A stretch of DNA of 24,250 nucleotides from a virus, in the UHGV virus genome UHGV-1428471; one strand, 5' to 3'. Position 1 is the first letter of the stretch. The number at the start of each line of letters is the position of its first letter. Shown here piece by piece: positions 18,001-21,000 of the stretch. Position numbers: made by a program.

Positions 18001-21000
18001 AAGGATGCGTCAACGGTTGGCGGCGTACTGATTGGTGTGCTGATGCTGGCTATCAACTGGTACTACAAACACCAGTCTTTCAAATTGTTACGTGGCGGCA
18101 AAATTTCGCGGGGGGAATATGAATCCTTCAATCGTTAAGCGCTGCCTTGTCGGGGCGGTGCTGGCTATCGCCGCCACGCTGCCCGGTTTCCAGTCGCTTC
18201 ATACCTCCGTTGAGGGGCTGAAACTGATCGCCGATTACGAGGGATGCCGCCTGCAGCCTTATCAGTGCAGCGCGGGCGTGTGGACCGACGGGATCGGCAA
18301 TACGTCCGGTGTGGTGCCGGGCAAAACTATCACGGAACGGCAGGCGGCGCAGGGACTTATCACCAATGTGCTGCGCGTGGAGCGGGCGCTGGAAAAATGT
18401 GTGGTGCAGCCGATGCCGCAAAAGGTCTATGACGCGGTGGTGTCGTTTGCTTTCAACGTGGGCACCGGCAACGCCTGCAGCTCCACGCTGGTTAAGTTGC
18501 TGAACCAGCGGCGCTGGGCGGATGCCTGCCATCAACTGCCGCGCTGGGTATATGTCAAAGGTGTGTTTAATCAGGGGCTGGACAACCGCCGCGCGCGGGA
18601 AATGGCCTGGTGCTTAAAAGGAGCATAACGGAATGAAAAAGAAAGTCATGAGCGTTTTTTTCCAGCTGGCATGGGCTGCGCTGTTGGTTATCAGCCTGCT
18701 GTATCCGCGCAGCGTTGCGCCGGTTCTGGTTGGTGCGTCTGTCTGGGTGTCATGCTTCCTCGCCTGGCTGCTTGCTGCGCTGTGCGCTGTCGGGTGGTTC
18801 GCCGGAGATCGGGCGCGCGATGAGGTCAGGGCGGCATTGCTGAAATTCAGGGCGCACCCCGTAAAACCCGTGCGTACATGGGTAATCAGGCTGCTTATTG
18901 TTCTGTGCCTGGCGTTTTCTGGATGGGTGATCACCCTGGTGTTTTACCTGCTGACGCTGGTTCTGTATCAGATTGCCCGCGCGCCGCTTCATGAGCCGAT
19001 GGCGGCCTGATGCGTGCGCTGGCGGTAGTGCTGGCGCTGGCACTTGCGGCGCTGGGCTGGCAGTCGTGGCGGCTTAACAATGCCAGCCACACTATCGAGA
19101 CGCAGGGCGCGGCGCTGAAAAGCAAAACGCAGGAGCTGACGAAGAAAAACAGCCAGCTGATCGGCCTGTCCATTCTGACCGAAACCAACAGCCGGGAGCA
19201 GGCGCGGCTTTATGCGGCAGCGGAACAGACCACCGCACTTCTGCGCAGCCGCCAGCACCGGATCGAGGAACTGAAACGTGAAAACGAGGATTTGCGCCGC
19301 TGGGCTGATACTCCTTTGCCTGCTGACATTATCCGGCTGCGGGAGCGTCCGGCCCTCGCCGGAGGTGCAGCTTACCGTGAGTGGCTGTCCCAGAGTGACG
19401 CAGTGCCGTCTGGAAAGGTCAGCGCCGCGCAGTAACGGCGATCTGAACGCGGTGCTGGATGAAACCGAGGCCGCCTGGGCGGTCTGTGCTGACAAAGTGG
19501 ACACGATTATTGCGTGTCAGGAGCGAGACAGTGAACAAACCGCAGTCCTTACGCAGCGCGCTGAATAAAGCGGTGCCTTATGTCCGCGACAACCCGGACA
19601 AGCTGCACCTTTTCGTTGATAACGGCTCACTGGTGGCAACCGGTGCCAGCTCTATGTCATGGGAATACCGCTACACCCTGAACGTGGTGATCGAGGATTT
19701 CAGTGGTGACCAGAATCTGCTGATGGCTCCGGTGTTGCTATGGCTCAGCGAAAATCAGCCGGACGCCATCAACAACCCGGAGCTGCGCGAAAAACTGTTC
19801 ACCTTTGAAGTGGATATTCTGCGCAATGATGTGTGCGATATCAGCCTGAATCTGCAACTGACGGAGCGTGTACTGGTCAGCACTGATGGCAGCGTGTCAA
19901 GCGTTGAAGCGGTGCCGGAGCCGGACGAATCCGAAGAAATGTGGACGGTGAAACGTGGATGAACTGCAGAGGGTGGATGACTGGCTAACGGCATTGCTGG
20001 CAAATCTGGAGCCTGCAGCACGCAGCCGTATGATGCGGCAACTGGCGCAACAGCTACGCCGGACGCAGCAGCAGAACATCAGGATGCAGCGTAATCCTGA
20101 CGGCAGCGGCTATGAGCCGCGCCGGGTGACAGCCCGTAACAAGAAGGGACGCATCAAACGCCAGATGTTTGCAAAGCTTCGCACCACAAAATACCTGAAA
20201 ACTGCAGCCAGTGCCGACTCTGCCAGCGTGCAGTTTGAGGGCAAGGTGCAGCGCATTGCCCGTGTTCACCACTACGGCCTTCGGGATCGCGTCAGCCGTA
20301 AAGGTCCAGAGTTCCGCTATGCAGAACGCCGCCTGCTAGGAATAAACGATGTAGTTCAAGCCCAAGCAACTGATAAATTGTTGTCTTGGATTATAGATAT
20401 GGGACGTTGAATTTAGCACAGTGTAATAACAGAAGCTCCTGTGTCAGCATTAACACAAATTTCAACTTGGGTTTTATTTTCAGCGATATTTCGTAGATGG
20501 GCTGTGTCAGGATGATTAAATAACGCTTCAATTCCCTGCCTCTCAACTAATTCGACAAATCCTTTTCCACTGTCATTAAAAATAAACATCACTTTAGTCG
20601 AATCGTCTGTGATTTTTTGGGCGATTACTTTGCCTTGTGCCGGAACATCAATGCGAAAAATAGACATTTTGCTTCCTCTCTGTGGATGATGTCGAAATTG
20701 TAACATAGTCAGCACAATCGCGAGGGTGTGTGACATCTATGAAAAACTGACAATCTTTCATCTATGAATACACAACTAACAGAAATCATGCGCCTTATCA
20801 CCAATCTGATCCGCACCGGCATTGTGACCGAGGTGGACCGGAAGAAATGGCTGTGCCGGGTGAAAGTGGGCGAGCTTGAAACCAACTGGATTAACTGGCT
20901 GACGCTACGCGCCGGTGGTGCCCGTACATGGTGGTGCCCGTCGCCGGATGAGCAGGTGGTAGTGCTGAGCATGGGCGGCAATCTGGAAACCGCTTTTGTG

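Follow-up and report, generated by a model that had tools for sequence, protein, structure and literature searches.

A probable single-gene moron between tail genes S and V of a Fels-2-type P2-like phage encodes a rare, undescribed 84-residue protein family

The virus genome UHGV-1428471, a metagenome contig (JGI 3300045988 Ga0495776_069772) of which the whole 24,250-nucleotide (nt) stretch analyzed here is called the window, is a P2-like phage of Fels-2 type that carries integrase, 186-type CI repressor, CII, replication gene A, portal, terminase, capsid, lysis, and tail genes. Between its tail-completion gene S and its baseplate spike gene V lies an antisense open reading frame (ORF) for 84 amino acids (aa), which is convergent with S, the two stop codons being 2 nt apart. 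The S-V region, the position of orf30 in phage P2, is one of three P2 regions known for morons, the other two being old/tin and Z/fun (PMC6823313), and phage R18C has another ORF, of 741 bp, in this slot (PMC6823313). Neither the site nor the type of element is new, and a further hypothetical protein in the orf30 slot would not surprise a P2 specialist; what is new is the protein family. We conclude that the 84-aa ORF is almost certainly a real accessory gene at the orf30 hotspot and that its protein family is undescribed and very rare.

The features of the locus are collected in Table 1. The ribosome-binding site of the ORF has a GAGG core at positions 20678 to 20675, 7 nt upstream of the ATG. 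G+C content drops from 0.59 in the front of S to 0.37 in its tail (20338-20410); the ORF has 0.376, the 96-nt spacer after it has 0.41, and V is back at 0.58; third-codon-position G+C (GC3) is 0.25 to 0.28 across 20338-20763 versus 0.65 to 0.68 in the flanks. A TGT-N12-ACA dyad stands 31 nt from the ATG of the ORF and 47 nt from that of V (46 nt from V in Fels-2). A first-pass annotation of this DNA had described an 84-aa antisense ORF with a good ribosome-binding site between S and V, an AT-rich block (by our measurement about 38% G+C inside DNA of about 58%), an AT-rich stretch of about 25 codons at the end of S (24 by our measurement), and a dyad about 30 bp from the ORF start. All of its statements about the window are correct. 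Its sole factual error is comparative, in that it left P2 without a gene between S and V, where Orf30 (261 aa, antisense, annotated as non-essential) is found.

Table 1. Features of the S-V region of UHGV-1428471, in order of position
Feature	Position	Strand	Basis
Tail-completion gene S, whole	19955-20410	+	Pfam Phage_tail_S, 5e-39
Native G+C-rich part of S	19955..20337	+	GC 0.59, GC3 0.65
Last 24 codons of S, AT-rich replacement, left end of cassette	20338..20410	+	GC 0.37, GC3 0.25
84-aa ORF including stop codon (MSIFRIDV...ITLC)	20413..20667	-	ORF list
Ribosome-binding site of ORF, AGAGAGGAAG	20672..20681	-	Direct reading of sequence
Candidate extended -10 for ORF, TGTTACAAT	20697..20705	-	Sequence; overlaps left arm of dyad
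TGT-N12-ACA dyad, TGTAACATAGTCAGCACA, predicted Ogr/Delta-type activator site of PV (late promoter of V)	20699..20716	+	Pattern
-10-like hexamer GACAAT for PV (putative)	20749..20754	+	Sequence; inferred
Baseplate spike gene V, first gene of late V operon, right border of cassette	20764..21342	+	Pfam Phage_base_V 7e-19 and GpV Apex motif

The first alternative to be weighed is that there is no gene at all, and that the ORF is a chance frame in an AT-rich, non-coding spacer serving as terminator, promoter spacer, or small RNA. When the 426-nt block around the ORF was shuffled, 2.7% of the shuffles contained a frame of at least 84 codons, which makes the length of the ORF only mildly unusual, so we decided its coding status from homologues and comparative data rather than from length alone. 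A word-indexed search of 5.8 billion proteins returned one other cluster only, at 94% identity. Two 84-aa relatives at 35 to 42% identity came next, from a full HMMER scan of 1.84 billion representatives, and after two profile searches the family stood at 12 clusters of 84 to 87 aa, with identities down to 24%, in a collection of about 15 billion proteins. Homologues at 24 to 44% identity keep length, start position, and motifs: residues G12, V26, F30, G45, A56, and H57 are invariant in the family alignment, and an NPDxAHL motif is shared. A longer in-frame start at 20736, which would give 107 aa, was rejected because every homologue is 84 to 87 aa long and begins at the position of the 84-aa start.

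Codon-level comparison points the same way. In unsaturated pairs of family members the ratio of non-synonymous to synonymous substitution rates (dN/dS) is about 0.2, and such pairs, compared at the sequence level, show purifying selection: L023 and L026 differ by 17 synonymous and 14 non-synonymous changes (dN/dS 0.22), L023 and L029 give a dN/dS of 0.27, and the synonymous-to-non-synonymous counts are 4:1 for L026-L029 and 5:0 for L027-L028. The nearest allele, also of the E. coli type, differs from the window ORF by 7 nt, 2 of them synonymous and 5 non-synonymous. Those counts speak for a chance frame, although by themselves they are uninformative, neither showing nor excluding selection between these two alleles. 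As for a non-coding function of the block, no Rfam match was found at E values up to 1 (positions 20250 to 20850), no terminator or structured RNA was found in the AT-rich S tail, and the RNA folding score (z = -1.55) is not unusual. Together with a confidently predicted fold for the product (below), these results leave a non-coding block very improbable. The first-pass annotation had named constant S-V spacing in related phages and a lack of codon-level conservation as grounds for dropping the gene; the spacing varies across relatives, and the ORF is conserved at the codon level.

The DNA context was read for nine clusters besides the window's own allele and for IMG/VR relatives. Wherever it was readable, the family gene sits in a P2-like prophage, between S and V and antisense to them, and wherever V is on the same contig, 92 to 96 nt separate the ATG of the ORF from that of V. 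The S and V proteins of the phages that carry distant members are only 54 to 64% identical to those of the window, and we find it mildly interesting that the family is faithful to one slot across so deep a divergence. Distant members deviate less in composition (G+C 0.47 to 0.57). Four IMG/VR loci (L126, L128, L136, and L145) also match the family; in these, tblastn with S and V did not place both flanks.

The organism names attached to the family are E. coli and Pantoea only, all other members being metagenomic. A DNA search of 5,426 complete E. coli genomes gave no match to the ORF, DNA and protein searches of 50,697 phage records likewise gave none, and the family had no match in 185,579 species-representative genomes (one per GTDB species). 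Two long repetitive proteins, P0004 (908 aa, E = 6e-6) and P0005 (1007 aa, E = 4e-4), did match, in several short stretches with an HPDT-like repeat; the HPDTT motif of P0004 resembles the NPDxAHL loop of the family, and both matches were treated as spurious.

The predicted 84-aa protein is of soluble type and mildly acidic, with an isoelectric point (pI) of 5.2. Across the listed family members the pI is 4.7 to 6.0 and the grand average of hydropathy -0.23 to +0.12, a near-neutral mean, values consistent with a soluble protein. AlphaFold with a seven-sequence alignment gave a model with a mean predicted local distance difference test score (pLDDT) of 87.4 (82 to 87 over five models) and a predicted template modeling score (pTM) of 0.78. 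The predicted topology is alpha/beta, with three beta strands, three helices, and two beta strands, and a four-sequence alignment yielded the same topology. The search for homologous sequences and structures that the first-pass annotation had proposed thus produced homologues, yet no annotated family or known fold. The ORF had no significant match in Pfam, PHROGs, NCBIfam, or PADLOC, nor did Pfam and PHROGs scans of all seven members of the alignment (A3) give anything significant. The sole PADLOC-DB v2 match, to SspC, was spurious (E = 0.029, 10.6 bits, 56 residues of an 828-position model). No catalytic or membrane domain was recognizable in the family-library scans, the Protein Data Bank gave no match (nothing below E = 0.15 in a sequence-profile search), and Foldseek against predicted viral structures returned nothing below E = 0.078.

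The ORF does not stand alone in its unusual composition. The closest sequenced phages, Yersinia phage MLG42 (94%), Salmonella phages SEN8, Fels-2, and SopEPhi, and Klebsiella phage 4LV2017, match the window in S and V but not in the block between them. S aligns to its Fels-2 and MLG42 counterparts with few mismatches up to about 20337; nucleotide similarity to both phages is lost at about 20338, within S, and picks up again at the start codon of V, so the replaced unit is 20338-20763. This 426-bp block comprises the AT-rich last 24 codons of S, the 84-aa gene in antisense, and 96 nt of divergent control region, in which the dyad of the late activator stays as far from V as usual. The replaced S tail retains the S-tail protein pattern (GINDVVQAQATDKLLSWIIDMGR; G-x-N-D-x-V...LL-x-W) despite its AT-rich codons.

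A second E. coli-type allele, the one at 94% identity, found in E. coli GCA_030187025.2 (L005 comparison) and in metagenomes, shares the S tail at 96 to 98% identity. Between the two alleles 20315-20794 is 96 to 98% identical, whereas the front of S is just 73 to 90% identical, and we therefore conclude that the cassette, S tail included, moves as one piece. The placement of the insertion junction inside S by the first-pass annotation is borne out by this shared unit. Exchange through the homologous flanks S and V is, from these alignments, the most likely route.

To place the cassette among related phages, we surveyed two sets of IMG/VR loci: 80 loci with the most similar S protein (Fels-2 type, L033-L112), 79 of which have both S and V, and 80 loci from the clade of the distant family members (Pantoea type, L119-L198), 71 of which have both. 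The S-V gap, 353 bp in the window, is empty in 69 of the 79 Fels-2-type loci, where it measures 68 bp. The remaining 10 carry other single genes, antisense and AT-rich (G+C 0.32 to 0.36), for a 174-aa membrane protein, a 231-aa membrane protein (DUF6216), a 259-aa DUF2971 protein (PADLOC PDC-S31), and a 283-aa uncharacterized protein. The gap is likewise a bare 68 bp in Fels-2, MLG42, and SopEPhi, and in Fels-2 and MLG42 it contains the dyad only; in SEN8 it carries an FRG-domain protein (PDC-S15). Among Pantoea-type loci 13 of 71 gaps are empty and 58 are occupied, by 23 protein clusters and with the main ORF antisense in 58 of 58. The 84-aa family accounts for 8 of the 80 Pantoea-type loci. 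Of the ten largest other clusters, four have PADLOC matches: PDC-S31 twice, PDC-S49 (1.9e-165), and bSEFIR (5.8e-108). Further Pantoea-type cargo comprises FRG, proteins that look HNH-like or HigB-like on inspection, several membrane proteins, and many proteins without assignment.

Such patchy presence and the deviant composition (G+C 0.37 to 0.41 across 20338-20763 against 0.58 to 0.59 in the flanks) are the marks of a moron. We consider 20338-20763 probably to be a single-gene moron in the S-V gap of a Fels-2-type P2-like phage, in the slot of P2 orf30. The first-pass annotation had taken the ORF for a moron-type accessory gene and had suggested a presence/absence survey of the S-V junction, and the survey agrees with it. 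Its expectation that such sites often hold defense genes also finds support, in bSEFIR, PDC-S49, PDC-S31, and PDC-S15/FRG among the S-V cargo. Since relatives without the gene exist, it is implied to be dispensable for lytic growth.

P2 orf30 is the closest known locus. Both genes are single, AT-rich, apparently dispensable cargo at the same position, between S and V and opposite in direction to the late operons, and both start near the activator site of PV, at a distance of 14 nt in P2 (annotated site) versus 31 nt in the window. The 84-aa protein is, however, unrelated to Orf30 (family profile E = 2) and only a third as large. In P2 an annotated terminator separates S from orf30, whereas in the window none was seen and the stop codons lie 2 nt apart; the window cassette also replaces the S tail. 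Comparison with the family profile led us to reject the ORF as a remnant of Orf30 or of a larger cargo gene. The profile is unrelated to every other cargo protein at the S-V site, and the gene has no paralogue elsewhere in the window.

The defense-like cargo at this site (the SEN8 FRG protein of PDC-S15, the DUF2971 protein of PDC-S31, the KAP NTPase of PDC-S49, and bSEFIR) shares with the ORF the slot, the antisense orientation, the AT-richness, and the distance between dyad and V. It differs in consisting of proteins of 165 to 632 aa with effector or sensor domains or membrane segments, whereas the window protein is soluble, has 84 aa, and matches no PADLOC model. The neaT moron of the Fels-2-type prophage phi-b0847 of E. 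coli CFT073 resembles the ORF in being a single AT-rich gene, phyletically rare and antisense among tail genes, and it demonstrates that cargo of this type can alter the fitness of the host (PMC3573123). NeaT is a membrane acyltransferase without sequence relationship to the 84-aa protein, and because its gene lies at the G-FI (Z/fun) position we rejected it as a precedent for the S-V site (PMC3573123). The recent hotspot studies consulted here center on old/tin, Z/fun, and int-cI and touch only briefly on a hotspot among tail genes (PMC9122126; 10.1101/2024.10.15.618418; PMC13586616). The S-V (orf30) gap is compact, strictly antisense, and usually home to one main gene per locus, and it has easy anchors in the S stop codon and the TGT-N12-ACA dyad. 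It could therefore yield new defense genes even from short metagenomic contigs.

The layout of the 68 occupied loci of both clades bears on the proximity of the ORF to the dyad. The dyad ends 45 to 48 nt before the V ATG in 67 of the 68; the cargo ATG is usually 69 to 103 nt from the V ATG, and the cargo stop codon is usually at most 30 nt from the S stop codon. Since unrelated cargo has this tight spacing too, we regard it as a property of the site. As far as these sequences tell, a cargo start close against the dyad is the standard layout of the hotspot and is not peculiar to the 84-aa gene. The first-pass annotation was right that the dyad adjoins the ORF start.

The same layout data weigh on a further alternative, in which the protein regulates the phage cycle by modulating PV late transcription or tail assembly, for instance as an anti-activator or timing factor. 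Such a role would suit a family that is exclusive to the S-V position across deep divergence and that holds its start codon 92 to 96 nt from the V start and 31 to 34 nt from the dyad. Positional fidelity of this kind is sufficiently explained by recombination between the homologous flanks S and V, however, and tight spacing is common to unrelated cargo. Moreover, the gene is interchangeable with at least 23 unrelated proteins at the same position, and most close relatives, including the plaque-forming phage MLG42 and also the Fels-2 and SopEPhi genomes, do without it and have the bare 68-bp gap. We judge a regulatory role improbable.

Activation of late promoters by Ogr/Delta proteins is established P2 biology. 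The window dyad has the position upstream of V expected of a late-promoter activator site; the P2 record marks an activator binding site in the corresponding position, with the same geometry, and it places the V-operon start on the initial nucleotide of V, about 55 nt away from the center of the activator site (L004 2240-2309). From the positions of the dyad and the -10-like hexamer we infer that PV transcription starts 2 to 3 nt before the V ATG, and the V mRNA may be leaderless or nearly so.

With only 31 nt between the ORF start codon and the dyad, any promoter of the ORF must overlap the activator site. The candidate is the extended -10 on the minus strand, which overlaps the dyad in its left arm. 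Of 9 distinct family loci, 8 (about 4 of 5 lineages) carry TGnTACAAT or TGnCACAAT, and the 69 loci with an empty gap all have ...ACAAA there and lack the final T; we take this recurrence as suggestive only. A generic promoter scan did not report the candidate at 20705-20697, and in the interval from the dyad to the ORF start it detected no usable sigma-70 site.

In the mechanism that we propose, the gene would be transcribed from this weak extended -10 promoter of its own, from a start near 20690 and with a leader of about 23 nt that contains the ribosome-binding site, and would be active in the lysogen and in the early phase of infection. Once bound, the late activator would occlude the promoter and turn the gene off, while late transcription reading out of S would collide with transcription of the ORF in the opposite sense. 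That the ORF promoter overlaps the activator site and is shut off late is a serious possibility on this sequence reading, a little short of probable. The first-pass annotation had proposed that the ORF and PV are coupled or mutually exclusive in expression, and from their geometry they may be. An activator site apparently built into the promoter of the cargo is of some interest in itself. If the gene is gated by the Ogr/Delta site, the phage would switch an effector off on committing to virion production, and the shared control region would offer a testable model for prophage silencing of accessory genes at the late-transcription switch.

A soluble, fast-diverging product without recognizable domains, encoded in a slot that otherwise houses defense-type genes, is most simply read as a stoichiometric binder that would block another protein in phage-host or phage-phage conflict. 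Small phage inhibitors, such as those active in anti-restriction, anti-CRISPR, and pilus-blocking superinfection exclusion, are proteins of fewer than 100 aa that are soluble, mildly acidic, fast evolving, and patchily distributed, with promoters of their own inside structural regions. The 84-aa protein shares their size, solubility, acidity, rapid evolution, and patchiness. We found no homology or fold match to them and no associated regulator gene beside the ORF, and we treat the resemblance as a lead only.

On which side of a conflict such a binder would act is a separate matter. A role in protecting the lysogen, by superinfection exclusion or in another defense-like way, is a tentative reading. 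A counter-defense protein, small and acidic, made right after DNA entry and before the late activator, would instead neutralize a host immune protein, and it differs from lysogen protection only in the side that benefits. The size, acidity, and absence of an enzymatic domain fit what is generally known of stoichiometric inhibitors, the gene may have a promoter region of its own apart from the late operon, and the family occurs rarely and in patches; the protein also evolves faster than the neighboring structural genes (26 to 39% versus 54 to 78% identity). However, the cassette is a single gene with no aca-type regulator or adjacent helix-turn-helix gene, as an anti-CRISPR locus would have, the other annotated cargo at the S-V site is defense-like, and the protein has no homology to anything annotated. 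Counter-defense seems to us rather unlikely, and we lean slightly toward lysogen protection.

Several observations tell against a cassette of the kind proposed, expressed in the lysogen and acting in its defense. At 84 aa the protein is far below the size of the defense-like cargo at this site (165 to 632 aa), which makes guilt by association a weak argument. No intrinsic terminator was found after the ORF, so the promoter-gene-terminator layout of a moron is incomplete. The 9-nt promoter motif shares bases with the conserved dyad, and its conservation is confounded accordingly. Finally, H-NS often silences AT-rich DNA in enterobacteria, and the cassette may be poorly expressed in lysogens. 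The boldest form of the proposal, that the protein founds a class of single-protein conflict effectors with a new fold and a -10 element gated by the late activator, is a model that we think unlikely to hold in full. Should the protein block a phage or host immune protein, it would be among the smallest such effectors known.

Two other regions of the window are also low in G+C. At 9201-10400, between replication gene A and the portal gene, where P2 phages classically carry the old/tin morons, G+C dips to 0.40; an ORF for 111 aa on the minus strand there (10014-10349) has no Pfam or PADLOC match. An AT-rich block (G+C 0.29 to 0.36) of two minus-strand genes occupies 1355-3167, between the integrase gene (214-1266) and the 186-type CI repressor gene (3127-4077). 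One gene encodes a 398-aa GmrSD_N/DUF262 protein (PADLOC NsnA 1.4e-65, PD-T4-2_A 2e-55) and the other a 222-aa RiboL-PSP HEPN protein (PD-T4-2_B 1.6e-8), and from these matches the block looks like a PD-T4-2-type defense pair at the int-cI hotspot.

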